Below the pieces are notes generated by a model that ran no database searches, had not been told where the DNA came from, and saw nothing but the letters and a program-made list of their open reading frames with translations. Made by a program: the position numbers and the translations under genes. Positions 2,820 through 33,725 of a stretch of 43,007 nucleotides of DNA are shown in pieces. The stretch's first letter is position 1. Each line of letters opens with the position of its first letter. Origin of the DNA: Nemertoderma westbladi (taxonomy: Eukaryota; Animalia; Xenacoelomorpha). The stretch spans positions 1-43,007 of the forward strand of contig JAUCBJ010004978.1 of assembly GCA_032718475.1 (NCBI GenBank). Direction: 5' to 3'.

Positions 2820-4560
2820 TGTATAGGATAGTTATAAATTATGAGATACTACTAAAACATTGGAAAATTCCCGGAAAACGTGAAAGTATTGATCAGCAGG
2901 AAATTTAACACACATGTATTACTCTAAATTGGAAATCCTAAATGTACTCCACGCACAGCACACCCTACGAAAACACCGTAAAACATAGGAAATCACTACA
3001 AAACCTCTTGAAAACAGTGAAAAAATAATCAGCATTAAATTTTAACTATATGCTGCTAAAAAAATAAATTTAAAGAGTCTAATACTACGCAGAACGCAAT
3101 GTTGCCAGGCAACCAAGCCAAGGAACAGGAACCAACCAACATGCTCAGCTCTGTCCTTGTTTTACCGGTCAGCTGGTAATCAGTATATTGATGTATTAAT
3201 TATATTGCATTCCAGTATTATTAGGGTGGGATCCTGTAATTTGTTAAGTGCTGAACAGTTGAAGTGCAGAACTTGCGGTATATTAAAGCCCGGTTTCCAT
3301 GATGCAATATAGTAGCTACTGGGTCGTCGCCCATAGCTAATAGCCACGGCCACTGGCTACTGGCTGCAGCCAGTGGCTACTTGCCGCAAAACCAGTAGCT
3401 ACTGGCCGCGAAGCTACTAGCTATTTGCGAGAGGAAAATAGCCTTCAACCAAGTCGAGCCTTCAACCTAGCCGTGGCTGCACGCTACGTGCCACGCTATA
3501 TATTTTATATACTGTATCTGTTTCACCATATTTTATCTACACAATCTGTGTGTGATACAACATTTTAATCAATAATATTCACTTTTTAATTATTACTAGC
3601 AATAGCAAAGTATATTAATTTATTAACTTTAAATGTTCTACAAAATTTTATCAATTTATTTTTAGAAAAAGTTGTTCTAGAACATATGTATATAGGTTTA
3701 TATATATATTGTTCTAGAAACTGGTTATATTTTGTTCTAGAACAACTGGTGTGGGGTCCATCCACAATTAAACAATTAAACAAAGCCGTAAAAAACCTTT
3801 TATGTGATGGGGGGAAATTAACTGAAAGATACAAAAACGAGAAATTAAAAGGCGAGGACCGAGGAACCATTTCAGATAGCTGTGTGTTTTATGGAAACAG
3901 GGTGTTTCATGGAAACCGGGATGACAGTGTTTCAAATAGCCGGTAGCTACGAGCCGCGGCCAACAGCTAATACTGCTGATATGCCTGCTGAAATGCCTGC
4001 TGATACCAGCTATTTTCAGTGGCCACTAGCCGCATTGTGGCACGTATCTAGTAGCTATGTTACATCATGGAAACCGAGCTTTAGACAGCAAGTGGGCCGT
4101 TTAGGTTAGGGCCTACAGAGATAGTGGCATACCAGTGTTGTGCTGGCAACTTCAGTACTTCAACTGTTCACCACTAAGCAGTGATTACCAGATCCTACAC
4201 TACTCAGCTACTATACAGAGTATCGGCTGACCGATGTTGATTGCTTACTGTTCCTCCCTTGTTTCCCAGACAACAATGATTTCTGCGTAGTATTAGACTC
4301 TTTAAATGTATTTTTTAGTAGCATATAGGTAAAATTTAATGCTGATCTTTTTTCATTGTTTTGCTGAGTGTATGCAGTGATTTCTCTATGTATACGGTGT
4401 TTTCTTAGGGTGAACTGTGCGAGGTATACATTTAGGATTACCAATTCAGTGTAGTACATGTGATAAATTTCCTGCTAACCAATATTTTCATTGTTGTCCT
4501 AATGTTTTACTGTTTTAGTAGTATTTTCCTAATTTAAAACTACCGGTACTAACTGATAGT
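2820..4560. mobile_element. Old diverged foldback/MITE with arms of about 400 bp (about 2820-3270 and 4150-4560)
   Basis: Shared inverted blocks such as cagcattaaatttt...tttaaagagtctaatactacgcagaa; ends approximate. Confidence 0.7.
3286..4081. mobile_element. MITE nested in the centre of the older foldback
   Basis: TIR AAGCCCGGTTTCCATGATG / CATCATGGAAACCGAGCTT flanked by TA; subterminal tagcta/tggcc repeats. Superfamily uncertain (TA or TWA target). Confidence 0.75.
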
Positions 4561-5190
4561 ACAGTAGGCTAAACAGATTATATGCACGGAAATAGTCCAT
4601 GTAAAACTTAATTAACATAATCTCTCCTGCCGTCAATTATTGTCCTGATCGTGTTATAGAATTTGGTTTTTAAAATGCTCAGTTGAAAGTTAATTTGCAT
4701 TCTGTATCCATCTCATACCTCATGTAACTCAATTTAAATCATAAATTATTTATGTTGTGGCAGATGTAGGTTACCCACCTCCATGAGTTTTGATCTCACT
4801 TCGCTTTCACTAGGTCAACTAATGAATGTCAAGATTAAAGCAGAATGCATATCTTATAAATAAATCAATGTTACTTTAGGCTTCGGCTTTCTGGTAAGTG
4901 GATAAGTGCAATGGTGATTTTATTTTTAGTATCAATAAAAAAATCAGCTTGTAAGATATGATTCCAAGGATAGAGATGTTGTCGATCCAGGTAAAGGGTT
5001 GGGAATTTCGACTCGATGAAAATTTATCTCAAGGGGGAATCGACTATAATAGCAGCTGATTACTTCCAAATGTAAATCTTGAACCTGTTCTACCGGGTGT
5101 TCCTATAATGATTGCCCCCCCCCCTGGCCAGCCAAAACTGCCAGATGTACCTTAGTGTATATATGATTTGAAAGATAATTTAATTCTGAG

Positions 5191-6771
5191 TGTTCGCGGT
5201 ATTTCAACTTTCCATAACGCGAGTTGAATATTTTTGTATTTTATTAAAATTGATTATTCCGATATTACTACTGGGTACGGGACCATGGGTTTTGGGCACA
5301 TTCTATAAACTGGGGGCGATTTATGGGCGAACTTTGGGGCAACTTACAGGGTACGGGAATAATTTCATAGTTATAAGGGCCAGGGGGGGATGGAAAATTC
5401 AAGCAGTATTCAGGTTAGCCTGAGTACTATTAGGCCCTGGCCAACTTCCTGCTGCCTGTAGGGGTGGATTTGGTAATGCGCCAGGCCTAAAGGACAAGGA
5501 CTGCCCTTAGCGGTCCCTGGCCAACAGCAGTTATTACGAGACTGAAAAGAACTCGGAACGCTGACTGCTTGTGTCAGGGATTTGCGACGGGAAACGACAG
5601 CCCTTAGTAGCCAAGCCGTTCTGGTTCTCGATGATCGAACCCTTCGGTGTTCGTGAGGGGTGGAACGGACACGCGAACGGGCGGCCGACTAACGACTGCC
5701 CCCTGAGCTAAGCCGTACTGGTTCTCGATGACCGATCCCTTCGGGGTTCGCGAGGGGTGGGACGGACATGCGAAAGGGCTGGCCACAGGACGGGTTTGAC
5801 GAGGACTGCCCTTAGCGGTCTCTGGTCAACGGCAGCTATTACGAGACTGAAAAGAACTCGGAACGCTGACTGCTTGTACCGGGGATCTGCGACGGGAATC
5901 GACGACAGACCCCTTAGCCAAGCCGTACTGGTTCTCAATGATCGTTCCCTTCGGGGTTCGTGAGGGGTGGGACGGACACGCGACGGGGTCGAAAGACAAA
6001 GGACTAGACCCTACTGGCCTACCGACTGTTCGGAGCAGTTTCTCGGCTGCCGAAGCGACTACGAGCCTGAAAGGGACTCGGAAAGCCTAGGTGGGTGGGT
6101 TTCTGCGATGAACCGACGGACCCCTAGCCAAGCCGTTCTGGTTCTCGATGATCGAACCCTTCGGGGTTCGTGAGGGGTGGAACGGACACGCGAACGGGTC
6201 CACCGACACGACAGACTCCTAGCCAAGCCATACTGGTTCTCGATGACCGATCCCTTCGGGGTTCGAGAGGGGCGGTACGGATACGCGACAGAGTCCACCG
6301 ACTGGACCGACCCTTAGCTAAGCCGTGCTGGTTCTCGATGATCGTTCCCTTCGGGGTTCGTGAGGGGTGGAACGGACACGCGACAGGGTCGACCGACACC
6401 GACACTACGGCACTAAGACCAGGACCAAGGGAAAAATCTGGGGAACATTAGGTAGGCTAAAATCTGAGCGAACAGTGGGTAATTAAATAATATACCGTAG
6501 GGATTTATATTATCGTGTATAATTATTTTGAATATTTGGTGTATATTGATTTGGGGAAGCCCAAAATTATTCTTAATCAGGTTCAACAGAGTTCAGTTAC
6601 ATTAAAGAGTATATCCAACTAATGCAGCTTTTTCTCAACCGCAACCCTGCATCTCAGAAATCATTCCTTCTCCAAAATCAATATCCGGTGACTGGCCGGG
6701 GCTCAGTGGTCTGTAAAGTCACGTCTCCAGCATCGGCGTTTTTCCCCCCTGGTGTTGGGATAACGGCAACA
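5191..6771 (+). repeat. 5' LTR of element A
   Basis: tgttcgcggtatttc...gataacggcaaca; matches 17913-19493 with about 10 substitutions and 2 single-base indels counted by eye. Confidence 0.97.
5498..6391 (+). ncRNA. LTR-internal array of structured RNA hairpins (6 k-turn/UUCG units and 3 loop-E/GAAA units); repeated at about 18220-19113
   Basis: Repeated units with pairable arms, cUUCGg and GAAA tetraloops, GAU-bulge/tandem G.A k-turn signature, and substitutions that mostly preserve pairing. Confidence 0.7.
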
Positions 6772-6979
6772 AAATTAAGAATAATTACGGTCAACTTCAA
6801 CTGGTGGAAGTTGAGAATCCTTCAATACTCTTCAAAACTCTCTACGTGCTTGCCAGCACCCACTACGAGGAAACTCTGGTATTTGAGTTGAGACGAAGTC
6901 GTGGTTTAATTAATCAACAAACTCGATCTAACCAACTCGTAGTCGGCAGATCACATATTTGGAGAGTTGTTAACAGGGA

Positions 6980-7171
6980 ATGGAAGTATCGATCACACCC
7001 ATTGATATAATCCAAGTTGAGCCAGGAATCTGGCACGTCGAAGTTGAAGTACAAGGAACGAACGTCGGACGATTCAGGATTACCGTTCGGGTGGTCCAAG
7101 CTGAGTACAATACCTACGAGGAACTGTTTTATGACATCGTGTATCTAGCTATCGACGAGGCGTTACAATGA
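6980..7171 (+). CDS. Short upstream ORF (63 aa) overlapping the gag start (ATGA)
   Basis: ATG at 6980; its TGA (7169-7171) overlaps the gag ATG (7168-7170); sequence looks protein-like but no family is recognised. Confidence 0.35.
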   Translation: MEVSITPIDIIQVEPGIWHVEVEVQGTNVGRFRITVRVVQAEYNTYEELFYDIVYLAIDEALQ

Positions 7172-10100
7172 CGACAAATAACGTATCCGATACCGACGAG
7201 ATGGATCACCACACAGACTCGGAAGCCGACGAGGTACCAAACGTCAAGAACATGACCCGTCGGCTAGGGGCTCTCAAAGGCGGAGTAACCCGAGCGTATC
7301 AACGGATGGAGAAACAACTCAAGGGAGTCAAAACCCCCCTCAATGAGGTACAAACTCAGCTTCAAAGTATCCGAAATATCCTACAGCGGTACGAAAGAAT
7401 GATACAGGCGTACCAAGAGCTCGTTCCCTCCACTGATCAGGAAAACTACCCCAAGTTGGAAGAACACGTTGTACATCTAGATGGGTTCCGCAAACAACAC
7501 CGGAGGACCCTCAGCCTTGTGAGAGGCTATGAAGAACAGTATTACAAGAGGGCTGAAAGAACAGACGCGGAATCAGTACGATCCTCCAGCATCAGGACAG
7601 CAGTACATCGAAAGAGAACTGGGTCCGCTAGAAATCAGCACTCCAGCGCTAGGAGCGAGATATCCGGCTCAGCGCGCAGTTCTCAAGGGGCGCCGCCACT
7701 CCGAGACCAACTGCGAGAACGGAAGGCATTAGCCCTCAAAGCTCGGATGGAAGATGAGTATATTCAACTGCAAGCCGAGCAAGATGTATTAGCCGCCGAA
7801 ACACAAAAGCGAGAGGCCGAACAAGTGGCCGAACGGCAGGCCGAACAACGCGAACAGGAGGCCGAACAACATAGACGAGAGGCCGAACAACATAGACGAG
7901 AGGACGAACGGCAGGCCGAACAACGCAAACAGGAGGCCGAACGGCAGGCCGAACAACGCAAACAGGAGGCCGAACGGCAGGCCGAACAACGCAAACAGGA
8001 GGCCGAACAACGCAAACAGTAGGCCGAACGACGCAAACAGGAGGCCGAACAACGCGGACGAGAGGCCGAACGAGAGATCGAACAACGTAAATGGGAAGCA
8101 GAAATGCGTAAACAACACGCCGAGGCCCAAGCAATTCTCATCCACAAAAAGAATGCAGATATTGCAAAACTCGCGGAATACGAAGCCGCACTTATAGAAC
8201 GAGATATTCAACTCTACGAGGACTGGGAAAGGGATATAGATCAGGAATATGAACCAAGCCCGGTACCGGAATTAGAAAAGTCATTTATACCGACAGCGGC
8301 GAAACTTCCGAAACCCGAGATCCCGCCTATCAAACAGTCTACGCTATCGGCACAAGCACCGGTGTTCCATCCCCCACCGGCTACGCTAAAGAATGAGGAA
8401 CATTATTTCCCATCCAACACCACGACAGCGAGTGTACCCAAGTACGAGCCTGAAAAGGACTCGGAACGGGACGCCACTCCCCGATCTAACAACCCATTTA
8501 CATCCACACCACAAACTCGTAGCCGCGTCATTATTAAAACTCCACCTATTATTGATACATCAAGTATGGGAGTGAGTGCCAATAACTATAACCCTCCGAG
8601 TCACTCCGGTTCAGACGACGTCAGCATCATCCGGGCATTGGAGAATCGCCTTGCCATGCCTAAGATGGAGATTCGCACCTTCGAAGGAGATCCCGTCGAT
8701 TACCTCAGATTCAAGAAACGGTTCTTTGCGCAGATCGGATCAACGGACATAGCCGACGCACAGAAATTGGTATATTTATCGCAATACCTGGGTGACAAAC
8801 CACGCAGAATTATTGCATGTTTTGAAGGAGGTTCTCTTGAGGCATACTATGACGCATGGAAAACTCTAGATAAAAGATACGGAAATACTGGAACTATAAT
8901 TAATAAAACTCTAGAGAGACTGATACAGGACGCGGGATCACTAGGGGACCCACAGAACATCCAGGAATTCTCCGACTCTATGAAGGATGCCTACTATACT
9001 CTGAAACCCTTAAATAAGGAGGACCAGGTGAACAACATTCTAAACCTCCGACAGATCGCCCGGAAGTTTCCCGGATGGCTACAAAGTAAGTGGGCTTATA
9101 AATGTGTAGATCTCCGGCGCAGACATCCAGATCGAGATCCTAGCTTCCTTGAAATGTCGGCATTCCTGTACGATATCTCCGAAGCCATGAATGACTCGAT
9201 GTTTTCAAAACAGAGTCTCGCAAAGTTGGACGGAATAGAGAGCAACTCCAGGAGTAAGATAACCCCTCCGAAACCGAGATTCCGCCCCCCACCGGTGAGT
9301 ACGATGGCCATCACCATGGCCGAGGATTCCGACGACGAAGACTACGAGGAACCGACATCCGCCGAGGAATGGGCATGTTATCTCGCGAGTTGGGCACCCG
9401 AAAGGGAAGGCATCACAAATTCCTTGCTCTGTCTCTTCTGTGGGGAGAAACATAAAGTGGAATTCTGCAGAAAGTTTCAGTTCGCCGAACTCGTCCCACG
9501 CTTCGAGGCGATAATGAAACACCGAGGATGCTTCCGGTGTCTTGGAACAGGTCACTATGTTCGGGAGTGCGACCAAAGATCATGCTGTGCTGTCTGTAAC
9601 GACCAACGCCATCACACGCTCCTCCACATCCCCGCGAACTTCGATTTTACTACCCTCCCCTTTCGGATCGAAGCCAGGCGAAGAGGAGAAACAAACCACG
9701 TCTTCAAAGGAACCCGGACAACCCAACGGAGAGAAACCAACCCGTTTAAAATCTCCACCGATACACCACAAGTAACAAATATTTCGGCCACGATTAATCT
9801 TATAAATCGCCGCTACATGGTCTTCGCAAAGGTAATCCCAGTAAGGATCCAAGGAGTCGGCAAATCTTTGACGACACTCGCGTTCCTCGATAACGGGTCC
9901 GACGGAACCATCATCGACCGGGATTTCCTCGAGCAACTCGGCCTAGAATATGAACCTTGTAAACGGCCCATACAAACCATCACCGATAACAGAGAGGTAG
10001 AGTCCGGGGAGGTGCAACTCCAGATGGAAGGAGTGATGAAGGGCTACGAAACGGTTAAGTTAACCATCAAGAACGCCTTGGTACACACAGACCTCCGGGT

Positions 10101-13100
10101 GCGGTTCCGACAATCAGCCGAGTATGCCCCCCTCATACAATTGGACCGAGACGATGTAGACCTGAGGTGTCCGCAGTTGGACGTAAACCGCATCACCCTA
10201 CTGATTGGACTTGATACACCGGAACTACACATCCCCACCGGAGATATCGCCCGATCTATAAAACAGGATGATGGATTTTATGCTGAACGAACAATAATGG
10301 GATGGACACTCTGCGGCATTAAGGAGGAAACTACTGACACCTATACCTACCTTCCCAAATGTCAGATTAAAGAGAATGCAACCTCTGTGGGTTATTGCTC
10401 AGCTTCGGATCTTGACAAGGATTTGTTTCTGGAAACCGAGAAAACCCAACGAGAGATGACGAAATATTTTAATTTGGAGACCCAGGAGTTCGCGGAAAAG
10501 GACGAAAACCCATCCGAAGAGGACCAATATTGTATGGACATTCTCGACCAGGCCACGTTTAAAGACGGACACTGGTGTTCACCTATGTTATGGAAGGACC
10601 CAAACAAACCAATGGCAAACAACGCCAGCATGGCACTTAGGCGACTTAAAGGGATTCTACGCCGGCTGAATGACCAACCCGAGATAAAGGAGAAATATAA
10701 TACCGTAATCCAAGGATATCTCGATGATGGATTAGCAGAAATGGTACCACGGAATGAACTGCAAGGTGGTAAAAGAACATATTATCTCCCAACCCACTAT
10801 GTAGTAGAAGCCCGCAAAGGTGGGAAAATCCGAGTGGTAAATGATGCTGCCGCTATGTACCAGGGCGAATCCCTAAACAGTCAGCTTTACACGGGACCCA
10901 ACATATATAGTACACTCATCGGGGTATTGATCAGGTTCAGGGAAAACCGGGTAGCATTCACCTGTGACATCAAGGCCATGTTTCATCAAGTTCGTACGTT
11001 ACCAAGAGACTCGGACTGTCTACGTATCCTATGGACGGATAAAACGCTAACTCAACAGGAGATTAGCCAACTCACGATAAAGGACGTAGACGTAATGCGT
11101 ATGGTCGTCAGGATCTTCGGCGCTAAGGACTCGCCGGTAGCATGCAGTGACATGCTAAAGAGGACGGCAACTATGTGCGAAAACGAGTTCCCTCCAACCG
11201 TCATAGAAACCATTCGACGATGCTTCTACGTGGACGACGGATGCGCCGGCGCGGATAATGTGGATGAGGCATATCGGCTAGCAATGGGGATGGTAGAATG
11301 TCTAAAGAAAGGAGGGTTTCCGCTCGTGAAGTTCAGATCCCACGACAAAACACTTATGGAAAAGTTTCCGGAGGACATCCGGCTGGAAAATAACAAAATG
11401 TATTCGGAGGATGTGGAACATCGTGTACTCGGGATTGAATGGGACATAGAATCAGACGAATTCATCTTCAAATATAAACCCCTACCCAAGCCTATGACAA
11501 AAAGGGGATGTTTGTCGATAAAAAGCGCCATCTTCGACCCACTAAATTTCATATCTCCAGTAACCTTGGCCGGAATGAACCTGATTAAGGAAATGTGGAT
11601 AGAAGGACTGGGATGGGACGAAGAGCTCCCCCCACACCTCAGCGTCAAATGGAGAAAATGGACAGAGCAGCTCGAACACCTACATCTTATGCGGATACCT
11701 AGACCGCTCTTCCTCGATAAACTACCCACCGATATCTTCAAGCTCCACACCTTTTCGGATGCTTCGAATACCGGAATCGGCGTAGTCACCTTCTTACGGA
11801 GACTAAGTAACGATGGAAATGGCGATACAAGCTTCTTATTCTCCAAAGCAAAGACAGTATCCGGGGAATTCGTAGCAACGATTCCGAGACTCGAGCTACA
11901 AGCTGCAGTTTGGGCAGTAAGACAGAATCGCATGGTCATGCGGAATCTACGGATCCCCATAGAATCTCAACACTTCTGGGTCGATTCGAGTATAGTTCTC
12001 TATTATCTCCACTCTCCATCACGGCGTCACACCACGTTTGTTGCAAACCAAGCCACGGAGATTAAACAGTGTACCGGCCGAGAACAGTGGCATCACGTGA
12101 ACGGGAAGGAAAACCCAGTGGACTTATCAAGCCGAGGCGCCACCCCAAAACAACTCGGTAAAAATAAACTCTGGCTTACAGGCCCGGAATTCCTACGGCA
12201 GCCACAATTAACATGGAGTACCCGATTCGACCCCGAACTCGATAGCGGAAAATACTCCGAGGACGATAAAGAGATCCGTAAAGTCCATCGAAGCAACGCG
12301 GTGGAAATTTATAGTTGTCTGACTGAGCCTGCAAAGGACTCGGGCAGGCACTATAACGTCGCGACGATCACTCAACTAGCGGCGTCTCTACATCGGTTGA
12401 TCGAGCGAACTTCATCAATGAGACGGCTCGTCCAACACGTTATAACCCTTCGTAACTTCCTACGGTGGAAAAACAACAAACCGATAGTTCAACGGAATAT
12501 ACAAGAACTCATTATCGCGGAGAAGTGTATTGTTAGATATATCCAGAGAGAAAGTTTCCCCGATGAATGGGAACAACTTAGTGCGGGCAAAACATTGAAA
12601 CCGGACAGCCCAGTCTACCAACTGAGACCAATGATGGGAAAGGACGGACTGATCCGACTGAATACCCGGATGGCAAACGCACCGGTCGAATATGAGGTTA
12701 AATACCCGGCGCTTCTGCCCGGAATGTCGACACTAGCTAAGCTATTAATTCTACAATGTCACGAGGACAACCACCACGCTGGACAGAATTGGATTATAGC
12801 TAATATAAGACAAAAATATTGGATCACCCACATCCAGCCACTAATCCGGAAAGTGTTGAAACGTTGCTTCACCTGCAGACGTTACCTAGCACCACCAATC
12901 ACCCAAAAGATGGCCGACCTACCAGCCACCCGTCTACAAGCAGATTCCCCACCGTTCTACGTCACCGGAGTGGACTGTTTCGGACCGTTTACGGTCATCG
13001 AACGACGATCCAACATCAAATGCTGGGGAGCCATCTTCACCTGCCTAAGGTCTAGGGCAATTTACCTAGATATCGTGGTAAATCTGACACAACACGCATT

Positions 13101-13932
13101 CATCAACGCTCTGCGTCGGTTCGTGGCGAACAACGGGACATGCCGCCACATGTATTCCGATAATGGTACAAACTTTGTGGGAGGAGAAAGAGAACTTAGA
13201 GAGGCGATCGAGGGATGGTTTACCGATAACACCGCATCCCAAGTCTGGAAGGAACACCAGATACAGTGGCACTTCCAGACCCCCTTAGCACCCCATACGA
13301 GCGGGGTATGGGAGAAACTGATCGACCTAGTGAAACGATCCATGCGCGTCGCTCTAGGCGATACCCGGGTAACCCATGACACCCTCCGCACAACATTCTG
13401 CGAGATCACGGCTACCCTGAACAACCGACCCATTGTCCCTATCCGCGACGACCCCACAGACCTGGAGCCCCTCACTCCTAACCACATACTGGGGAGACCC
13501 AAAACCCACGTTCTCCCGGAAACCATGTTCCCGGATCCCAACGAGATCGCGAAACATACAAACTGGAAAAAGGCCCAAGCGTTGGCAGCGCATTGGTGGA
13601 GAATTTGGGCCCAGGAGTACCTCATAACCCTCCGGACCAGGAGGAAATGGAACAACACCTACCGGAACGTCGCAGTTGGCGACATGGTACTAGTTAAAGA
13701 AGATCTCAAAGACCGCGTTCACTGGCCTGTGGCGCGGGTCGTGACCATACACCCAAGCAAAGACGGACTTGCGAGGACTGTGACGATACGAACGGCATCG
13801 GGCCACTACCAACGCCCTATCCAGAAGCTGTGCCTTCTTGAAGGCAATGACAGTGGTGATTCTACGAGAGGTGATAAGTTCCCTACTCAAGATCCTGCTG
13901 CGGACATTGGTGACAATTACAAACCCGTGTAA
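7168..13932 (+). CDS. gag-pol: BEL/Pao Gag-Pol polyprotein with one in-frame TAG at 8020-8022
   Basis: ORFs 7168-8022 and 8104-13932 share a frame. Motifs: gag FEGDPVDYLRF (about 8680); three Cys/His knuckles (9430-9630); protease AFLDNGSD (about 9880); RT DIKAMFHQV and FYVDD (about 11225); RNase H LHTFSDAS, TIPRLEL, FWVDS; integrase HHCC, GVDCFGP, SDNGTNF, GVWEKLI; C-terminal GDMVLV...WPVARV...RPIQKLCLL. Confidence 0.95.
7810..8075 (+). repeat. Coding tandem repeat in gag (21/33-bp units, EAERQAEQRKQ coiled coil)
   Basis: Repeated gaggccgaacaacgcaaacag / gccgaacggcag units. Confidence 0.9.
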
Positions 13933-14210
13933 CCCTTCTCATCATGTTGACAAACTCTTTTTAACTGTGATGTATCGACAACAAATTATGGACCCCCCTT
14001 AAACCAACTGTAACCACGCAATGGTATTTGTGTTTCCTCGTGTGTTATGTGGAGTCCAGCGTCACCCTGCAGATGTTTCGACTGACGCAGGGTCGTTTAT
14101 GCATTGTTTACCCTGATTTTGGTCATCGGGACCAACGATATTGGATTATTGGAAATGGTAAAGATTTGAAGTGGAATTCATTGTATTCATTGCAGTATGT
14201 TATGTTGTCC

Positions 14211-14621
14211 GTTGCGTGCGCAGTTCGGGGCGTAGGCGGTGTAACGAGTCCAGCTGTAGATCCCGGATTGCCGCGCAACACCCCCTCTATCCCGTTATTC
14301 TGGTGGGTCCATGGTGCATCCACATGACTTCGACGATAGAGGGTTTTATGTTTCTCAGTCGCGTTATTCTGGTGGGACCGTTGCGTGGATTTTGGGGCGT
14401 AGGCGGTGTAACGAGTCCAGCTGTAGATCCCAGAATGTTGCGTAATCCCATCCCACATGACTTCGTCGACTGAGCTTTATGTTGTTGGGAGTGTTATTCT
14501 GGTGGGTCCCTGGTGCATCCACGTGACTTCACTCCCAGCGTCGTCATTGTCCGTTACGTGCGCAGTTTGGGGCGTAGGCGGTGTAACGAGTCCAGCTGTA
14601 GATCCCAGATTGCCGCGTAAC
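14211..14621 (+). ncRNA. Triplicated covarying stem-loop downstream of pol
   Basis: Three copies (14211-14279, 14380-14446, 14553-14621) with an invariant 38-nt core and compensatory changes in the enclosing stem. Confidence 0.65.
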
Positions 14622-15176
14622 ACCCCTTCCACGACAAAGATTAACCAAAGAAAATGATTGAATATAGTTGGAAATGATGAAAAGGATCAGACAACTCTAC
14701 TATAAACCTGAATGATGACGCGTATGCTGATGAAAATGTAATGATGCGCACCCTGGTGCTGCGCTTATAACCAATGATGATAGCCGGGGGGCTATAAACC
14801 CAATGATGATGTGGAAATAAATAAATGTGAAATAAATGGTGGAAATAAATGTGTTGAAATATATGTGGAAATAAATGAAATGAGATGGAATAATAATGAA
14901 ATGAAAAAAGACAAAAAAAAGGTATAAAAAAGTCTAAAGAAAAGAATTGAAAAAAAGAAAGGACAAAAAAGTCATAACACTGGTTGGATATTAATGTATA
15001 GTTATAGTAACTGTAAATGCTGAATGTATTAGCAATAAGATGATAGATGCCTATATAGCAATGTTATTAATAAACTGAATTAAATAAAAAACTGAATTAT
15101 TCTGCTATCGCTATAGTTTCAGACTTTCTGGACTTATAATTAACTGATCTAATTTGTAACGGATATAATCGTAAAT

Positions 15177-17750
15177 ATGGACCCAAATCGCCAAATTATC
15201 GGCGAATTACGTAACACGATAGATCTACTGGAATATTCGCAACCTGGATCCCCTGACTTTGATACAAATTGGAGCACCCTGCTAAATGAGAACGTGCGAG
15301 TCGTTAAATTCACCGGGCGAGAGGGACCGGATTCCAAGAATCTACGAGCCCTCCGGTTAGCCGATGCTAGTACGAGACTGAAAAGAACTCGGAACGCAAA
15401 GGCAACCGGAGGGGACGATTCGTCGTTTTGGGAAACGTTCCGGCAGAGCGTTTACAGATCCCAATGTTTGATCTACGACAACGAGGGAAACGCGACGCCC
15501 ACCTCGAAAGCGATTACGTTGGCGAGATGTCAAAGTTTCGTCGACGACAAGAGTACGTACCTCGCCCACTGGGGAAACCTGTCGGAGTGTACGGCGACGC
15601 TTCGAGAGGAACGCATATCGATTATCCAAAACCGCGACGACTACCAGGAAAAGTACGGGGCGAAAGAATACGGTCGATCCTTAGTCGTCGTCCTCGGAAC
15701 CCTGGACGGTTTGGTACTGGTGTGCCGAATATTCCCGACACCCAGACAGGAAGTGCAGGCAGCCGGAGCGATCTGGTTGCTACCTCCGGAAATCCAAAAG
15801 ATCCTCTTCGACTTCGACGTCATTAAAATCGGGTCGGATATCAAGGCGGACGTCCGGAACGACTACGCGAACGCTCCTGCAGGAAGAAACCGACGAGACG
15901 ACCTCAACGCCCTTAGCCATTGCATCGACACTCAAACGCTACTAGCCTGATTACGATTCGCCGAGTTCATGCGAGGATTCCAAGAGGTGAGACCGACGAA
16001 ATCCGGGATCGGCTACCTCGCTGTGCTAAACGGCGGCATCAACTTCAAACCCCAGAAATTCCGGGACTATAATAAAATATATGGTGGATACCCGGGATTA
16101 GAAATAAAGAGCGAGCGAGAGGGTCGATGGAAGGACGTTGATCGGAAGTGGACGATACACCAAAGGTGGGAGAATCCCGATCGACGGAACTACGTTTACG
16201 TCGTTATGGAATGCTACACCGTCGCTAAGTTTATCTGTAAAACTCTCGATAACCTTATTACGGCGGTCCCCCTTTCCTTCGTCGACTACGACTGGAACGA
16301 GGTCATACACCACGCGTTCAAAGCGGTCGAGAACATTGCACCGGGAGAGACTAAACGCTCGCCGTTATCGATTCCTGGGACGAGAGCGGACCTTACGACA
16401 TCCCTACGATTACCGAACTTCTCGGTGCAGAGGAGCCTCTGATCTCTTCGGAAGGGGAAGAGATATGGCTAAACGAGGGTGTTCTACTCTCCACCCCGAA
16501 GCGACAACTCGAGCCGGTGGCCGCTTACCAACCGGCCGCAAACGGGTTGCCCCCACCGTACCAACTACGGAAGCAGGCGTTTCCTCACCACTCGGCTTCG
16601 GTAGCCCTGCGAGGGAGTTGGTTACTACCTTCGCGTTAAACGACTTCGGCGTTACGTGCCAAAGGTTATCCCCGTATCCTTTCCCGGGTGGCGAAGACTG
16701 GTCGTCGGAGATTCCGAGTACCAGCAATCAACAGACCCGCTCAGCGATATTGGTCGAGAAGGGCCCCAGCGCTGCGCCGACTCCCGACGATCTCCTCGGA
16801 ATCCCTCCGTCGAAAACCCCGGCACCTCTTTGCCGACAAGCGGTGGCTACTACACCCTCCGTTCCTCAGGATCCCATGCGACTAACCCGTTGGTACGCCG
16901 AGCAAACTGAATGGATCCACCGCCAGAGACGGTCGTCCGAGTTGAGACCAGCGGGACACAAAGAAGGAAAAGCCTAGCATTCCGCGGGCTACCGACCACC
17001 GCGAATATTCCGAAGAGTGACCGACGACTCGAATATTACGTCGGCCTCCCGATTCCGATATTCCCCGGTCGAGAGATGCAATTGGAGGTTTGCGGCAACT
17101 GCGGTTCGGAACAGTGCCCACGCGGTAGAAGGAATCGGGTTACCGATTCGTGCCTCCAGCTCATCGGGATACTCTATTGCCCATACTGCGCGACATCGGG
17201 CCACGACGTTTCCGTCTGCCCGATCCTATATAACCTCTGTACCACATGCAGTTTCCGTGGACATTCCTCTAGCCCCCGCTGCTATATCAAATGTCCAACC
17301 AAAGACGTTACCGCTATGGGAAATATGGTCATGTTTGAAACATACGCAAACAGCCACTTAAAGACCAAGGTTCGGAGAAACGCTCGGAATATCGCGCAGG
17401 AGATGGCGTGCGGGTATTTCTCCTTCCCGGAACGCCTCCACACGTCGGCCATGCTACCTTTCCATTACGTGGATCTGCTACTGAGCGCCGGATTATTCGG
17501 TCCATTTGAAGTCATTAGACGATTATACTCGTATAAAGAGGAGTTCGGTGACGGAGATTGGTTCCTAGAGGCACGCAAATCTGAGTTGGAAAGACGAACC
17601 GACATGATCCCTATGCCATCGAAAGGAAGAGCCGCCAGGAGACAAGCCGAAGCGTTACTCACGATGGATGTGGACGCTCCTCTACCAGCCATAGCGATCG
17701 ATGAGAGTCGACGGGCGAAGAGACGAAAGGTGTATCAGAAAAAGAAATAG
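15177..17750 (+). pseudogene. Extra ORF of element A: DnaQ/WRN-like 3'-5' exonuclease-like domain, linker, Cys/His zinc cluster, basic tail (about 860 aa if repaired)
   Basis: LPPEIQKILFDFDVIKIGSDIKADV, CIDTQTL, SGIGYLA and W...YVYVVMECY follow the WRN/RNase D exonuclease motif order; CGNCGSEQC, CPYCATSGHDVSVC and CTTCSFRGH...C; ends RRAKRRKVYQKKK. One TGA (15948) and about 3 inferred frameshifts. Confidence 0.7.
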
Positions 17751-17903
17751 TGGATCGGGATATTCCAGGAACATTTATCGAACATTTATTTATACAAACT
17801 CTAGGCCAAATTAATTAAAACTATGCAATATTAAATTTGGGTTTTTTATATTGGGAATGACCTACGCAAACTCAATCGACCGACAGACTTCACGAAGGTC
17901 ATT

Positions 17904-17911
17904 GGGGGGGA
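17904..17911 (+). promoter_or_regulatory. Polypurine tract (plus-strand primer) of element A
   Basis: ggggggga ending 1 nt before the TG of the 3' LTR. Confidence 0.8.
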
Positions 17912-17912
17912 C

Positions 17913-19493
17913 TGTTCGCGGTATTTCAACTTTCCATAACGCGAGTTGAATATTTTTGTATTTTATTAAAATTGATTATTCCGATATTACTACTGGGTAC
18001 GGGACCATGGGTTTTGGGCACATTCTATAAACTGGGGGCGATTTATGGGCGAACTTTGGGGCAACTTACAGGGTACGGGAATAATTTCATAGTTATAAGG
18101 GCCAGGGGGGGATGGAAAATTCAAGCAGTATTCAGGTTAGCCTGAGTACTATTAGGCCCTGGCCAACCTCCTGCTGCCTGTAGGGGTGGATTTGGTAATG
18201 CGCCAGGCCTAAAGGACAAGGACTGCCCTTAGCAGTCCCTGGCCAACAGCAGTTATTACGAGACTGAAAAGAACTCGGAACGCTGACTGCTTGTGTCAGG
18301 GATTTGCGACGGGAAACGACAGCCCCTTAGTAGCCAAGCCGTTCTGGTTCTCGATGATCGAACCCTTCGAGGTTCGTGAGGGGTGGAACGGACACGCGAA
18401 CGGGCGGCCGACTAACGACTGCCCCCTGAGCTAAGCCGTACTGGTTCTCGATGACCGATCCCTTCGGGGTTCGCGAGGGGTGGGACGGACATGCGAAAGG
18501 GCTGGCCACAGGACGGGTTTGACGAGGACTGCCCTTAGCGGTCTCTGGTCAACGGCAGCTATTACGAGACTGAAAAGAACTCGGAACGCTGACTGCTTGT
18601 ACCGGGGATCTGCGACGGGAATCGACGACAGACCCCTTAGCCAAGCCGTACTGGTTCTCGATGATCGTTCCCTTCGGGGTTCGTGAGAGGTGGGACGGAC
18701 ACGCGACGGGGTCGAAAGACAAAGGACTAGACCCTACTGGCCTACCGACTGTTCGGAGCAGTTTCTCGGCTGCCGAAGCGACTACGAGCCTGAAAGGGAC
18801 TCGGAAAGCCTAGGTGGGTGGGTTTCTGCGATGAACCGACGGACCCCTAGCCAAGCCGTTCTGGTTCTCGATGATCGAACCCTTCGGGTTCGTGAGGGGT
18901 GGAACGGACACGCGAACGGGTCCACCGACACGACAGACTCCTAGCCAAGCCATACTGGTTCTCGATGACCGATCCCTTCGGGGTTCGAGAGGGGCGGTAC
19001 GGATACGCGACAGAGTCCACCGACTGGACCGACCCTTAGCTAAGCCGTGCTGGTTCTCGATGATCGTTCCCTTCGGGGTTCGTGAGGGGTGGAATGGACA
19101 CGCGACAGGGTCGACCGACACCGACACTACAGCACTAAGACCAGGACCAAGGGAAAAATCTGGGGAACATTAGGTAGGCTAAAATCTGAGCGAACAGTGG
19201 GTAATTAAATAATATACCGTAGGGATTTATATTATCGTGTATAATTATTGTGAATATTTGGTGTATATTGATTTGGGGAAGCCCAAAATTATTCTTAATC
19301 AGGTTCAACAGAGTTCAGTTACATTAGAGAGTATATCCAACTAATGCAGCTTTTTCTCAACCGCAACCCTGCATCTCAGAAATCATTCCTTCTCCAAAAT
19401 CAATATCCGGTGACTGGCCGGGGCTCAGTGGTCTGTAAAGTCACGTCTCCAGCATCGGCGTTTTTCCCCCCTGGTGTTGGGATAACGGCAACA
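17913..19493 (+). repeat. 3' LTR of element A
   Basis: Direct repeat of 5191-6771, same length, directly after the PPT. Confidence 0.97.
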
Positions 19494-19689
19494 CTGATCT
19501 TACATGCAAAAATTTAGGGTCCAATACAAAAGTATAAAAATTTTATAGGCTATTCTTTAACCTATCTTATTTTTCGTTATTTTTGATTTAATCACAATTA
19601 AAAAAATATAATTTATCCAGCGTTTAGTCATCAGCTTTACAGCCATGTTTTCCCTTTGCAGCACGGGGAGCTCCTCAACAGTGGCAAAG

Positions 19690-19718
19690 GATGTTGGCCC
19701 TTAAAAGGGCCGTTTTGG
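19690..19718 (-). promoter_or_regulatory. Histone mRNA-type 3' stem-loop
   Basis: Minus strand CCAAAAC-GGCCCU-UUUA-AGGGCC-AACA fits GGYYYU-UYUN-ARRRCC with an A-rich 5' flank; no histone CDS is adjacent. Confidence 0.65.
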
Positions 19719-20225
19719 TTTGAGTTCAGTTTCATTATGCCACAGAATCACGATCCTCTCTAAAAGTAACATATCTGATTCTGTCAACCATACCGTTTTC
19801 TTCACAGTCATCGAAGATTGCACTGGAACTTGTCATTTTAATTACATCTGTTAGGCCTAATTCAGTAAAATTACCAAAGAAACGCTAATACCGGTAACTG
19901 AATACTGTAATATATTGCAATACAGCAAAAGTCAGGCAGTTATAACTGTTTAAACAGGGTTGCAAATCTGATGACAAACGCTGGATAAATTATATTTTTT
20001 TTAAATTGTCATTAAATCACAAATATTGAAAAGTAAGATGATAGGTTTAAAGAATTGCCTATAAAATTTTTATACTTTCGTATTGGACCCTAAACTTTTG
20101 CATGCAAGCTCATAATTCAATTATCTTTCGAATATTACACTAATTATATTACTATAATTAATTAATTACAATAATTAATTATATACACTATTATATTACA
20201 CTAAAGTACATGTCTGGCAGTTTTG

Positions 20226-21106
20226 TACGGTGGCTGAAAGCGGCCAAACAATATTAATTAAGCGTTTTTTTTTTTAATTTCAACCCGGGTTGAAAATAAT
20301 ATCAACCCGGGTTGAAAATAATATCAACCCGGGTTGAAAATAATATCAACCCGGGTTGAAAATAATATCAACCCGGGTTGAAAATAATATCAACCCGGGT
20401 TGAAAATAATATCAACCCGGGTTGAAAATAATATCAACCCGGGTTGAAAATAATATCAACCCGGGTTGAAAATAATATCAACCCGGGTTGAAAATAATAT
20501 CAACCCGGGTTGAAAATAATATCAACCCGGGTTGAAAATAATATCAACCCGGGTTGAAAATAATATCAACCCGGGTTGAAAATAATATCAACCCGGGTTG
20601 AAAATAATATCAACCCGGGTTGAAAATAATATCAACCCGGGTTGAAAATAATATCAACCCGGGTTGAAAATAATATCAACCCGGGTTGAAAATACTTGCA
20701 TGTGACCAATGACAATTCGTTCTATGAACTCTTTTGTTGATGAGGTGTGGCGGGAAATATAAATATAATATATATATGTAGGTATCACTCAGCCAATGCA
20801 GCAATGCAATGTCCGACTGTAGGCCTACTGCAAACAACTGGAGTAAACAGAAGTATAGCGATACATATATATTTACATTTATATTTCCCGCCACACCTCA
20901 TCAACAAAGAGTTCATAGAACGAATTGTCATTGGTCATATGCAAGTATTTTCAACCCGGGTTGATATTATTTTCAACCCGGGTTGATATTATTTTCAACC
21001 CGGGTTGATATTATTTTCAACCCGGGTTGATATTATTTTCAACCCGGGTTGAAATTAAAAAAAAAAACGCTTAATTAATATTGTTTGGCCGCTTTCAGCC
21101 ACCGTA
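20226..21106. mobile_element. Non-autonomous foldback DNA transposon, IS3EU-like
   Basis: TACGG...CCGTA termini; long near-perfect TIRs; 6-bp TSD gttttg (20220-20225, 21107-21112), which is single in the uninterrupted opposite arm of the host MITE. TAY..RTA ends with a 6-bp TSD match IS3EU. Confidence 0.75.
20280..20692. repeat. 22-bp tandem array (19 copies) with the 14-bp palindrome TCAACCCGGGTTGA; 5 inverted copies at 20951-21052
   Basis: Identical caacccgggttgaaaataatat units, counted directly. Confidence 0.95.
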
Positions 21107-25390: not shown

Positions 25391-26653
25391 CCACAACTCA
25401 TTGCTTATATTTCTTTTCCGGCAAGTTTTTTTGGAAAATTGAATTGTACATTCGATTTCTAAGGGCTTTTTAGTAATATTAGTCGTTCATTACTTTAAAA
25501 AGATTGACAGCGGGAAATAAAAGTACATTGCTGACCAATCAATGAATCTCCTTTGGTTTGATTTCTTTTCACATGGTAATTATCTGTGATAGATTTGATT
25601 TGTATGTTTAGAAATATGAGCTGCTCAGCTGCCAAGGTTAAGTGATTAGAAATTCGAGATGCCTAGACGTGTGCAACATTAATGCTGCCAAAAATGTCTT
25701 TCCCCTTGTGTATCCGTAGTTCTTCCCTCACCTGACTTCCGGATCCATGATCTCAAGTAGCAGAAGTTATCCACATGCAAGCCATCCCAGGAGCTTATGC
25801 CCTTACGATCACACATTTCTTGGCGGCTGTCAGAGTTTACTATATTATCTATTATCTATATATGTTATCAAAATTTTGGTCTTCTTGGAGTTTACAAAAA
25901 GACCAACACTAGTAACAACCCGCTCCAATGAGCAGAGGATCCTTTTTGGCTCCCTCTAGTTATTCTGACAGTAGGCCTACTCTAGTTCATTTAGGTACTT
26001 AGGTAACAGGATTTCCTCGACTTCTTGAACCAACCGGTAGTGTTATCATCACTCCATCTTTGTTAAGATGGGTATTTACGTAGAACATAATCAACCACAA
26101 TTAGTGACTAAGAATGAGTGTGTCGAGTGTCTCCCATTAGAACTTCGAATGTATATATCCCTATAACATTACTTTATACAGCACTACAACTAATACCAAT
26201 GGTTGATTGGCACACAGACTAAAAGTTATTCTACTGTATATTATAAACGATATCCAAAATGGTGTTTCTTCATGAACCAAACATAATCGAAAATTTGAGA
26301 CGTGTAGTAGTAGTAGACAGAATATTTGCAAGAAGATTCAATGGAATAAGGCTTATTAATATGTATGGATTACTGGTGTGCTTAAAATAATAGCCAATAG
26401 TTGTTTCGTAAGAAGAGATAATTAATGCAATTAAGATGGGAAATATACTATTATTAATAATGATGCATGTGAGTGATAATATCATAACCGAAATAAGACG
26501 ATATTAAATACGTGCTTGAAGGTTTCGACACTTTTGATTTCCTTGAAGGTGTTAGCGCATTTGACAAAAAAGACGTATTTAACCTCTATTTAATATATTT
26601 TGACTCTTTCCGATTGTTTTGTAGAGCACACAAGAATGAGAGTAAAAAACCCA

Positions 26654-27900
26654 TGTAAAGTACAGTAGTATACCGCCTACCGGATCCTAGTAATGAAGTA
26701 CGTTACTGTAGAATCCAGCATTGTATACGGGCTCGTACAGTATCTGACAAGAAATCCCAGTCCAGGGTGTCTAAATAAATAGATACTAAGTATACAAACT
26801 ACTACTGGCGAGGAACGGAGCCTGGTGTCTATTCTAATACTTGGACGAATCAAATGCCCAGGCTAACTAGACAAACAGGATGCCCGGCCTCTAACCGGTG
26901 AGGCAGATGTACAGTCTACAGATACAGACCAAACTCACGGGAAAACAATCCCCGCGTAGCGAATCCTAACTATTGCTAATGGACCTAAAATACTGTAAAC
27001 TTGCTGCGCTGTGATTTATATATATGGGTATAATACGAGCTAGTGGGACAACAGAACTAGCGTAAAACAATACTGCCGACAGGAAAATAGCAGTCAAAAG
27101 GGGTGCCTCTACACCTGAGTAAAACAAATACCAAATTTCTCCTCAAATAATAGAATATTCTTACCGTAAGTCTGCAGCTTAGATCTCAAGACGTGTGTGT
27201 GTGTGTGTGTGTGTTAAGATAAAACAATTTTGGTGTATCGCCGTTATACTAGGTTTTGGTGATTTTATCAAAATAACAATGCTGGGTGCTAGCTACTCGA
27301 ATAAGCTAGTCGCACGCTGTAGGCGCAATTCTTATAAACTGACGTCAAAAGGGCTCTCTCCTCCTTCATTCACAACTCAACCGGGCAATTACGGTGTTAG
27401 TAACTACACCCGTGATCGGCACTAATACCAGATTCTGATTGTGAGATAAGGAAATAGGTGTTAATTTACTAGCTAGCTGTAGTAGTAGTGCCGTAGTAGT
27501 AGTAGTAGCTGATCTGGTATATAATTTGATTCTAGAATTTTGTTACTGCGGTGGGCTGCAGTAAATACCTATCAGTACTTTGCAAGGGCGCGGTAGGATG
27601 TTAGTAACCTCCCTTAGCCAAATGTGTTCTGGTAGCAGAAAACTGCCTCTTGCCTGATCAAATACTTTGGAATCAGACAGGTGAGTCAAACTATAAGGCC
27701 TACAGAGCTAACCGGTACTGTACTGTCAGTACTGCAAATCACCAAATTATAAAGCGTGCTATTCACACCTAAGTGCACTTGCGCAAACTGACGAACAGCA
27801 ATAGCTCGCACCTGTAGGAGATACAGGTTGATCCGGGTTTTTCCCTGTCTCAATCTGAGATATTTGATCCTAAATTTTACGGCGTCCCAGGATGGCGTAA
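26654..27900 (-). repeat. LTR-like direct repeat of element B (3' LTR)
   Basis: Colinear with 37002-38200 from tgtaaagt to ggcgtcccagga; many more differences than the LTR pair of element A. Confidence 0.85.
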
Positions 27901-28234
27901 ATACTAAGTACTGCGTAAATATAAAACCTTCGTACATACATACATACAAATACGGATTTACTATCTAATTTATCAAGGCTTAGTGCATAAAATATAAAAC
28001 TTCGGTAATCCAAATTAAACAAATTAACAAATTAAGGCAAATAATTTCAAATCCTTCGTAATACATATAATATTGCAAATATACATAATAAATTTATCAA
28101 ATGAAATCAGTTCAATATAAACAAAACATAATACGCTAAAATAATTTCCAAATTGAGTTGTGTTAATTTCCAAAAGTGTCCTCCAAGATCTTAAAAGTTT
28201 GTCCTGCTGGTTTCTAGACATCATCTCCTGAGCG

Positions 28235-29885
28235 CTAATCGATAACGGTCCCAATCATGCGCTTAGTAGGATCGGGTTGAGCCTCTGTGACGCTAGGAGG
28301 GAGTTTTAGGGGTGGGACCAACCCGTCCGCCGTCACCTCACTCTCCGATGTCATCTTAACCCTCATTGGTTCGGGCAAAGCCAATCCTGCTTTAAAACCA
28401 TTTTCGCGCAAGACGTCTGCCTCGTCCAATATACACCAGGTCACGCGTTTGTAGTAAAATGCGCTCCGATAAGCCCAAGCAATCGAATGCCAGGCTCCCC
28501 GATTCCACTGTTCGATTCGCAGTTTGTCGAACTCTCCAGCGGGTATCCATGGTTCACCATGGTCTGAAAGTTCCATGTATTCTCATTATCTGGGTGAACC
28601 AGTAGGAAATAGTCCCATACAAACTTAAAGCCACTATCCAATGGCAATATATCTAGTACCTCCTGTCAGTTTCGAATGTGCCATCTCCGATCCATAATCA
28701 AATCGTCCGCATCAGATATCCTTGCAGGATGCAAGGTGCGATATCCGTCCCCATGCAATCAACTTCCTTTAAGTTGGTAAAATGTGGATGCACGTTGCGT
28801 ACGATTTTCTGGACGATTATTCTACGCAACTCCGCCGCCTCTAATACATCGCCAAACGTTACCGATGGGAGGAAATCCAGGTTCGAAATGATCTCTGGAT
28901 GCTCCACTATGGGGATCTCGTAGGTCGTATCCTCTCGAGGCGGTATGCTGATAGGAAATTGGTTGTCCTCGCGACCGGCACTATCGCTTGGGTAGAGTAG
29001 AGTAGATTCTCGCATCATCTCGACGTGAAGTATCTGTAGTTGAGCGAAGGTAATGCTATCAAAGAGTTCGGGTGTCATTTCCTTGGGTTCGGTTTGATCC
29101 TGGGATATCCAATAGAATGGTAGGCTCGCGAGCATTCCACCGAACTTCTCAATCTTACCTTTGTCGTACACCTTGTATCCCCTATATAGGCTAAGAGCTT
29201 CCCGCTTCTCCTGTGTCGACTTGTTGGACTCGTCTACTACCATATTGTAGATGTCCAGTTCGACTAGTTTGGGTTCGTAAATCACAATCTACCCCGCGTT
29301 CGGTCCACTCATCTTAAACGAGTGATACGGATTCATCAAGGGGTATCCACCTTCTTGATAACGCAGACTCTGATGGTTTGGGCATCGCGCTAATATCGGC
29401 TCGGGGTTCTCCGTGTTCAAGTGCATAGGAATCGCATTGTCTTTCGCACGCATACATTCTCCACATTTATAGAACAGTTTATAAATGGAGAATGCTTCCT
29501 TAGTCTCCAGGTCCACTCCTCGAGCACGTCTATAAAGGTGCATCCAATCGAATTTGTCCCTAGCTGCAAGCTAGGGTTCCCTCGCCGTCAAATATTGCAG
29601 CATGTGATATAATCGGCGCATCTCTGTGTCGGTACAGTGTGGATACTTGTTTGGACTTGGTAGGCCTGCGGGCCTTCCGGTGAGTGTCTCCCTTTGTGTA
29701 ATGGGTTTGTCTGAGTCCTTAAGCACTTTATTAATCTCCACGGTCTTACCTTTACTGTCAGAACTCAGTGAGTTGACTGGTAGTAATGGTTTCAGCTCTA
29801 TGGTATCAATGTGTTCCTGTGGGCTCGTAAGCTTCCTAACGTTAGTCATGCGTTTAGCCATAGGCTGTAAGTCTAGTATTTTCAA
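28235..29885 (-). pseudogene. Degenerate extra 3' ORF of element B, unknown product (about 550 codons)
   Basis: ORFs 29571-29885, 29289-29543 and 28698-29285 share a frame separated by single TAGs, followed by frameshifted 28441-28647 and 28235-28576; contains CGEC...CPNH. Confidence 0.6.
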
Positions 29886-30049
29886 TTAGCGGAGTGTGAT
29901 ACCTGTATTTACATTTGGATGGGCACAACCCATACTTGCAATACCTGTAACCACACTATCAAGGAAGTCAAAGTAGGTAAGTTGGTAATACCTAGTTTAG
30001 TACTAGTCTGCTCCAATGGGTTTGCAGCGTCATAGCACATGTCATTACT

Positions 30050-30520
30050 TTCTGGTTGATAGTTTAGTGGAAAGTCTGGTAGACAGTCTGGTGAGGCGTC
30101 CGGCGAACAGTCTGGTGAGATGTCTGGTGAAACATATCACGAAACATCCGGCGAAATGTTCTGTCATAAGTCCCATGGAAAGTCTGGCATAGCATCTGGC
30201 AGAGTGTCTGGTCTAAAGTCTGGTGGACAGTCTGATGGAACTAAATGTTCAATGAAATGAACTGGAACGAAGTGTCTGGTGGAAAATTTGGCGAAATTTC
30301 CGGTAGACAATTGGTCAAAAGATCCAAAAAACAATCTGGCAAAGAATCCAGAGAATAATCTGGTGGACAGTCTGGCGAATAATCTGGCAAGATGTTTGGT
30401 GAACAATCTGGTGAACAATCTGCTGAAATCCCCCACGGAACTTCCGGTGAAAGATTTGTTGGAACGTCTGGTCGAATGTCTGGTGAGACATCTGGCGTAA
30501 TGTCTGGTCTATTGTCCAGG
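30050..30520. repeat. Degenerate 12-bp tandem repeat (tctggtgaacaa-like) inside element B
   Basis: 12-nt period; reads PDxx repeats on the minus strand. Confidence 0.8.
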
Positions 30521-30639
30521 TCATTTGATTTTATTCGTCCTTGTTTCCTCTTGACCTTGGTGCTGGCTTTTGCCTTCGACTTGACAACAGTATCAATTTT
30601 TATCTCAGCACCTTCCCGGCACATTCATTCATCCGATGG

Positions 30640-33716: not shown

Positions 33717-33725
33717 ATGGGAGTT

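Follow-up and report, generated by a model that had tools for sequence, protein, structure and literature searches.

Introduction

Retroviral RNAs carry cis-acting transport and stability elements, among them RRE, RcRE, the IAP RTE and the MusD MTE. Some are structured direct repeats, as in the MPMV CTE and the RSV direct repeats (PMC3856414). Among LTR classes, BEL/Pao retrotransposons ranked second in abundance in a survey of animal genomes (PMC3118150), and we found no description of how their unspliced RNA passes through nuclear surveillance. Some LTR retrotransposons encode further proteins: those of bdelloid rotifers carry an ORF3 with a DEDDy exonuclease (PMC5408684).

Kink turns (k-turns) are bound by L7Ae-family proteins, and most of them fold upon L7Ae binding; C:G at -1 and C at 3b favour folding in Mg2+ (PMC8191799). 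In vitro selection with Snu13p yielded U.U next to the tandem GA pairs in nearly every case and made few other demands, whereas SBP2 needs a purine-pyrimidine fourth pair and prefers an internal loop (PMC1874613). Here we describe a BEL/Pao retrotransposon whose LTRs contain an array of hairpin modules, six of which have the sequence pattern of a standard k-turn.

Results

A young BEL/Pao retrotransposon carries the array

The window, that is, the whole 43,007-nt stretch of DNA analysed, contains a BEL/Pao element on the plus strand (Table 1). Its long ORF encodes DUF1759, Asp_protease_2, Peptidase_A17, Integrase_H2C2 and DUF5641 domains. This Pao-type gag-pol domain set, the paired TG...CA LTRs and a short candidate target-site duplication place the element in BEL/Pao. 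The two LTRs, equal in length, differ at 12 positions, four of the five bases flanking the element are identical and are likely a target-site duplication, and the element is young. Among the 120 matches listed for pol, homologues were 35–39% identical and the named ones came from animals; none in that list exceeded 39%, and hence there was no sister LTR to compare. Two DNA runs gave a summed contig depth of about 3x10^4 to 2x10^5 across the LTR; this does not translate into a copy number, and it suggests that the LTR family is very abundant. At the 3' edge of the LTR (6772–6820, plus strand) no primer-binding site abuts; a TGG-starting candidate at 6802 lies inside a small hairpin.

Other repeats share the window. 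A second, more decayed BEL/Pao element occupies about 26650–38190 on the minus strand, with LTRs about 93–95% identical and an extra coding region of its own near 28200–29600; the k-turn descriptor described below had 0 matches in it. Tandem arrays of 22 bp with a palindromic core lie in opposite orientations at 20275–20694 and 20946–21057 and are possibly the ends of another element, and a 166-bp unit is repeated about three times at 41955–42434. Just outside the element, 19671–19716 on the minus strand weakly matched the Rfam histone stem-loop, at E 0.0086 and with a score under the gathering cut-off.

Table 1 Features of the element and its hairpin modules (positions in the window)
Feature	Position	Strand	Description
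BEL/Pao retrotransposon	5191-19493	+	Pao-type gag-pol between two TG...CA LTRs
5' LTR	5191..6771	+	1,581 nt, TG...CA
B1 hairpin	5503..5591	+	shared basal module, long stem, loop-E-like ANUA/GAA, bulged A, UGAAA-type loop; z -3.9
A1 k-turn-pattern/UUCG hairpin	5598..5684	+	bulge 5630; 3b.3n U.U
A2 hairpin	5696..5781	+	bulge 5727; 3b.3n C.C
B2 hairpin	5808..5896	+	z -3.7; 8 differences from B1
A3 hairpin	5907..5991	+	bulge 5937; 3b.3n U.U
B3 branched module	6005..6105	+	B core at 6058
A4 hairpin	6118..6201	+	bulge 6147; 3b.3n U.U; z -3.3
A5 hairpin	6213..6296	+	bulge 6242; 3b.3n C.A
A6 hairpin	6308..6391	+	bulge 6337; 3b.3n U.U
AT-rich stretch	6470..6630	+	candidate core promoter/poly(A) region; initiator-like TCAGTT 6593, ATTAAA 6482 and 6601
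gag-pol, BEL/Pao	7168..13932	+	in-frame stop at 8020-8022
B core in gag	8441..8466	+	z -2.0
Diverged B-type hairpin in pol	12296..12363	+	z -3.9
Three C hairpins	14205..14629	+	located between pol and the extra ORF; variable, covarying stems carry an invariant 38-nt core
Broken extra ORF	15177-17750	+	exonuclease-like domain, Cys/His zinc-knuckle cluster, basic tail; stop 15948-15950 and further breaks
B-type hairpin near extra ORF start	15349..15413	+	z -6.1; minus strand also folds, z -5.9
3' LTR	17913..19493	+	also carries the nine-module array (about 18225-19113); bulges 18353, 18450, 18660, 18870, 18964, 19059

Nine hairpin modules in each LTR

The first-pass annotation had reported six tandem k-turn/UUCG hairpins built into each LTR. 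All six are present at the bulge positions given for them (A1 to A6 in Table 1) and recur in the 3' LTR. They do not form the contiguous run over 5600..6391 that had been described: three hairpins of a second type, B, are interleaved, and the array begins at about 5503 and extends to 6391 in the order B-A-A-B-A-B-A-A-A. The B hairpins, the C hairpins and the extra ORF described below were all absent from that annotation.

From base to tip, each A unit begins with a basal stem and a UA-or-GA/GA loop, followed by a GC stem of two pairs, a 4x4 loop and a stem of seven pairs. The k-turn pattern comes next, and above it a UUCG loop closes a further 7-pair helix. The basal loop of A1, AGUA/GAA, resembles the sarcin-ricin motif. 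An alignment of the units bore out the claim that basal stems differ between A copies. The proposed unit consensus held in that all six units fit the k-turn pattern, and it failed in detail: L1 is A in the third unit of the 5' LTR, and the capped helix often contains U.U mismatches.

The linkers between modules are poor in U (8 of 99 nt), and GAC words number 48 in the array against 18.5 expected. We took the GAC-rich linkers to be possible SRSF7/9G8 binding sites, an idea for which a literature search found no supporting paper. Enrichment of m6A sites was rejected, with 29 DRACH words per 951 nt of array against 195 per 6,765 nt of gag-pol.

Module number differs between genomic copies. In an 886-nt contig from run X6, which carries a different organism label, 5603 is joined to 6315, so that a single B and a single A module remain. 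Runs X1 and X3 contained shorter joints that skip A1 to B3, short-sided joints in repeats being unreliable.

The A units share the sequence pattern of standard k-turns

In all six A units, -1b:-1n is C:G, L3 is U, the tandem GA/GA is present and 4b:4n is C:G. By sequence rules, the C-helix, 3-nt bulge, G.A plus A.G (at 1b.1n and 2b.2n) and NC helix of a standard k-turn were found in 12 of 12 units over the two LTRs. The earlier statement that 3b.3n is always non-Watson-Crick was borne out, with U.U in four units, C.C in one and C.A in one, so that every A unit combines this feature with the C:G at -1b:-1n, a favourable combination by the rules given in PMC8191799. Eleven of the 12 units retain an unaltered cUUCGg loop.

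A strict descriptor of the k-turn hairpin, composed after the units had been seen, matched exactly the 12 LTR units in the 43-kb window and 0 sites on the minus strand. It matched 7 of 20,000 dinucleotide shuffles of A4 and 4 of 20,000 of A2. With a relaxed version the window had 13 matching sites, while of 20,000 shuffles each, 127 of A4 and 105 of A2 matched.

Two deviations of A5 in this copy, at 6230 and 6273, were absent from at least 98% of the depth in runs X1 and X3, and its 3n position was not among the 40 variants listed in the contig depth comparison; a further 81 variant rows fell outside that list, and the support for the kink from this comparison is weak. One contig of depth 2 with a diverged C-helix strand, which was unphased, was left out of the analysis.

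A slipped register competes with the k-turn

Folded singly and compared with 200 shuffles each, the A units gave z scores from -0.4 to -3.3. Fewer than 15 of 200 shuffles were as stable in one of the six units only, and five of the six reached no better than -1.6. ViennaRNA preferred a slipped register over the k-turn: a 2-nt shift in which the GA opposite the bulged strand becomes paired and the bulge grows to 5 nt. The slipped register was 5.0–7.1 kcal/mol more stable in all 11 units evaluated, the twelfth having been skipped because of a deletion. Neither sheared G.A pairs nor a bound protein count towards stability in the nearest-neighbour model. The C-helix in the k-turn register has four pairs only, two of them U.G. 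With the slipped register favoured by 5–7 kcal/mol, kinking probably needs protein.

We also asked how well the pairs are kept between units. Over 26 hand-anchored pairs, 141 of 156 cells were paired (7 of 20,000 permutations were as high), and four of the 26 pairs had compensatory changes (449 of 20,000 permutations); three of these four lie in the hand-anchored basal stem. When the basal stem was removed, the k-turn core showed no covariation, 349 of 500 shuffles being as high. The six A units are paralogues, so there are few independent events. The two registers were paired almost equally, in 91.3% (slipped) and 90.8% (k-turn) of cells, and slipped pairing may be partly automatic for any k-turn with C at -1b. 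The registers part at 3b and 3n, which change jointly (U with U in four units, C with C or A in two); the k-turn register explains this joint change and the slipped register leaves it unexplained.

The designation as a standard k-turn thus stands in every sequence rule checked; at the level of the alignment the core pairs lack covariation and the slipped register fits equally well. We consider a protein-induced k-turn fold of the A units plausible and, on balance, probable.

B and C hairpins extend along the element

B1 and B2 have the same basal module as the A units. On it stands a long stem that leads to an ANUA/GAA loop; beyond this, a short stem containing a bulged A ends in a UGAAA-type loop. 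We take the ANUA/GAA loop to be of loop E or sarcin-ricin type and the UGAAA-type loop to be T-loop-like. The differences between B1 and B2 all fall in the lower stem, and 8 of 8 preserve pairing, six through G.U wobbles and two as one compensatory pair. On the other strand these wobbles would be A.C mismatches, which argues for RNA and not a DNA cruciform.

Across the whole window, the 26-nt B core had nine matches within 8 mismatches, all on the plus strand and all inside the element: three per LTR and one each in gag (8441), pol (12320) and the extra ORF (15369). The gag and extra-ORF copies lie in different reading frames. With a descriptor for ANUA opposite GAA between helices, the predicted sarcin-ricin/loop E motif, eight of ten plus-strand hits were B cores and the minus strand had 0. 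The pol copy is without the ANUA/GAA motif.

The C hairpins are B-like in their short stem, bulged A and UGUAA loop. Three of their 25 pairs are changed on both sides, and they had no Rfam match. Downstream, the degenerate repeats at 14650–14830 (plus strand) include small hairpins and RUGAUGA at three places, and gave a weak C/D-box Rfam hit (E 0.87) with box spacing that is not snoRNA-like. Coding windows at 13225–13335, 15505–15615 and 17185–17295 (plus strand) had z scores of -2.2 to -2.8; they were chosen from 213 windows and are partly chance.

An extra ORF downstream of pol

The first part of the extra ORF had two database protein matches (E 3e-7 and 4e-5); a third was spurious, and P0122 is a spurious repeat-protein hit. 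The atlas look-alikes of one of the two, P0123, include a cluster of 3'-5' exonuclease domains (score 0.94), the three best hits being unnamed. P0123 also matches the zinc-knuckle piece of the window pairwise (E 6e-11), and the extra ORF and P0123 have the same architecture. The first exonuclease catalytic motif is not evident by eye in this copy. Searched by itself, the zinc-knuckle piece had no match at E 0.001 among 795 candidates, and a search with P0123 returned its self-match only.

Probable RNA-level selection and the position of the array in the transcript

Every base of an LTR is present in sense genomic RNA. The array is therefore transcribed at least once per replication cycle, and the proposal that it is transcribed in sense follows from LTR biology, with gag-pol on the plus strand. 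The view that it is a selected RNA structure and not a DNA enhancer repeat also gained support: pairing is strand-asymmetric and kept through G.U pairs, compensatory changes occur, and a second hairpin family is dispersed in coding sequence. We conclude that the array is very probably under RNA-level selection.

Its place within the LTR can be read in two ways. Downstream of the array lies an AT-rich stretch with TCAGTT, which we take to be initiator-like, and ATTAAA, presumably of poly(A) type; this suggests that the array is in U3. At LTR position 114 the sequence is TATA-like here and is a canonical poly(A) hexamer in 93–94% of the contig depth (runs X1 and X3), by which the array could instead be in U5.

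Discussion

The six A units may form a multivalent 15.5K/Snu13 platform that protects and exports unspliced genomic RNA; we give this reading a probability of about 45%. Free A-unit RNA would adopt the slipped register, in which the helix is straighter and has a 5-nt bulge; binding of an L7Ae-family protein would move it by two nucleotides into the kink. The A units, with their bulge and C-G fourth pair, fit 15.5K/Snu13 better than SBP2, and the partner would be 15.5K/Snu13, in several copies per array. Placed in U3, the array would act as a 3' UTR element. The B and C hairpins might be sites of a second factor along the genome, perhaps Gag or the extra ORF product. The assembly would work like a retroviral transport/stability element with avidity set by module number, and, by analogy with those elements, export and stability roles are likely. 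Copied by reverse transcription, the array would expand and contract through template slippage or switching.

The closest competitor keeps the hairpins and gives up the kink. The A units would act in the slipped register, with a 5-nt AUGAY bulge under the UUCG cap, as TAR/RRE-like response elements for an element-encoded protein such as Gag or the zinc-knuckle, basic-tailed product of the extra ORF; their match to the k-turn would be incidental. The slipped register is the minimum-energy fold in most units, it fits the alignment equally well, and the element encodes a candidate RNA-binding accessory protein. We nevertheless judge this unlikely, since it leaves unexplained both the joint 3b/3n change and the GA/GA, L3-U and C:G pattern found in only 4–7 of 20,000 shuffles, and since in A5 it puts a G.A mismatch at the bulge-closing pair. 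The k-turns could also be real and lie in an R or U5 leader, where an L7Ae-family protein would block scanning and shift the RNA away from translation towards dimerisation and packaging; the dispersed B hairpins would then serve as packaging signals. In synthetic biology, k-turns in a 5' UTR do block translation when L7Ae is present; the hexamer of poly(A) type that most contig depth shows close to the start of the LTR, and the spread of B hairpins along the genomic RNA, are in keeping with such a leader. It would, however, have to be about 1.9 kb long, and the initiator-like motif, the AT-rich stretch and ATTAAA are all downstream of the array, as in the usual LTR order U3-R-U5 with the array in U3; we rate a leader position lower still.

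The remaining alternatives fare worse. Tandem repeats reportedly occur in LTRs, Pao included, copy number varies here and GAC is enriched, all as expected if the array were a DNA-level enhancer repeat or a neutral product of slippage with incidental hairpins. Strand-specific conservation of pairs through G.U, variable stems around invariant B and C loops, the same B core at three ORF positions, and the UUCG and tandem GA motifs make that account very improbable. There is the slenderest chance of a self-cleaving ribozyme, for instance a rearranged hammerhead, as the identity or the origin of the modules: GAUGA-stem-GA resembles hammerhead domain II, yet the array has no CUGANGA, the GAAA and cleavage-site strands are missing, and Rfam gave no ribozyme match at E up to 5. 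Scarcely more probable are SECIS-like SBP2 sites acting as decoys or drivers of UGA recoding. The A units contain the SECIS UGAN/NGAN core (AUGAY...HGA), but SECIS was rejected on the helix and loop, 7 bp with UUCG against the 11–13 bp with apical adenosines of SECIS helix II, and there was no Rfam SECIS match. Canonical k-turns that have a protruding U can be bound by SBP2, and a C-G fourth pair is unfavourable for it (PMC1874613).

Returning to the 15.5K/Snu13 platform, we also entertain a broader picture, as a doubtful conjecture. The LTR would be an expandable RNA scaffold of interchangeable 3D motifs, in which the k-turns are two-register switches thrown by 15.5K and the loop-E/T-loop hairpins are read by the element-encoded exonuclease-fold zinc-knuckle protein; a snoRNP-like dressing, tuned by module number, would let the RNA escape nuclear decay. 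If this is a natural k-turn array, it names a host factor and gives a direct test on 90-nt RNAs. If the proposal is true, the targets of L7Ae-family proteins extend to retroelement genomes, and shuffled RNA 3D modules are a route by which an LTR evolves. For k-turn folding rules, the naturally occurring U.U, C.C and C.A variants, together with the competing register, form a test set.

Searches for relatives returned little. An Rfam scan of 4500–20000 at E up to 5 gave four matches, none in the array, and pattern scans of viral contigs with the A, B and C cores gave 0 each. In metagenome data the A core had two matches, both chance: they fall where a single bacterial gene of a cellulose-synthase-like operon ends, and lack the hairpin. 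A protein-led search of viral contigs confirmed no related locus, and a second family with the array was found neither there nor in the metagenome. No k-turn array in an LTR retrotransposon appeared in the titles and abstract starts of the literature searched, a scope that left out most subscription papers and Repbase reports.

The extra ORF has its nearest likeness in the bdelloid ORF3 elements, which also have an ORF with an exonuclease-like domain 3' of pol; those belong to the Juno and Vesta clades (PMC5408684), whereas the element here is BEL/Pao and its ORF adds a zinc-knuckle cluster. Tandem repeats in Pao LTRs, compared by title only, share the superfamily and the location of tandem units in the LTR; the units here are structured modules of 85–100 nt and of two types. 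A box C/D snoRNA identity was rejected: the LTR has no RUGAUGA, and no RUGAUGA/CUGA pair flanks guide regions. The box C/D k-turn and the 15.5K-bound intronic klRNAs (bioRxiv 10.64898/2026.08.03.742641) share the UGAU...UGA core with U.U and a 15.5K-type site; in contrast, the A units have C-G as fourth pair, no RUGAUGA/CUGA box pair and no guide. The terms 'LTR' and 'retro' have 0 occurrences in the main text of that preprint.

To our knowledge, no retroviral transport element is built from k-turns or from mixed, interchangeable 3D-motif modules. The retroviral elements do resemble this array as repeated, structured cis-elements in LTR retroelement RNA, likely with avidity-based protein recruitment (PMC3856414). 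With the standard k-turns Kt-7, U4 snRNA and Actinomyces-1 the A units share the 3-nt bulge, the tandem G.A/A.G and C:G at both -1b:-1n and 4b:4n, and the key pairs of A2 (C:G, C:C, C:G) are those of the Actinomyces-1 k-turn (PMC8191799). Unlike those k-turns, the predicted ones here occur in six copies in a retrotransposon LTR, with a short, G.U-rich C-helix and a competing slipped register. Both cis-acting transport elements and tandem repeats in LTRs have precedents; what is new is the modular array of k-turn-pattern and loop-E-like hairpins.
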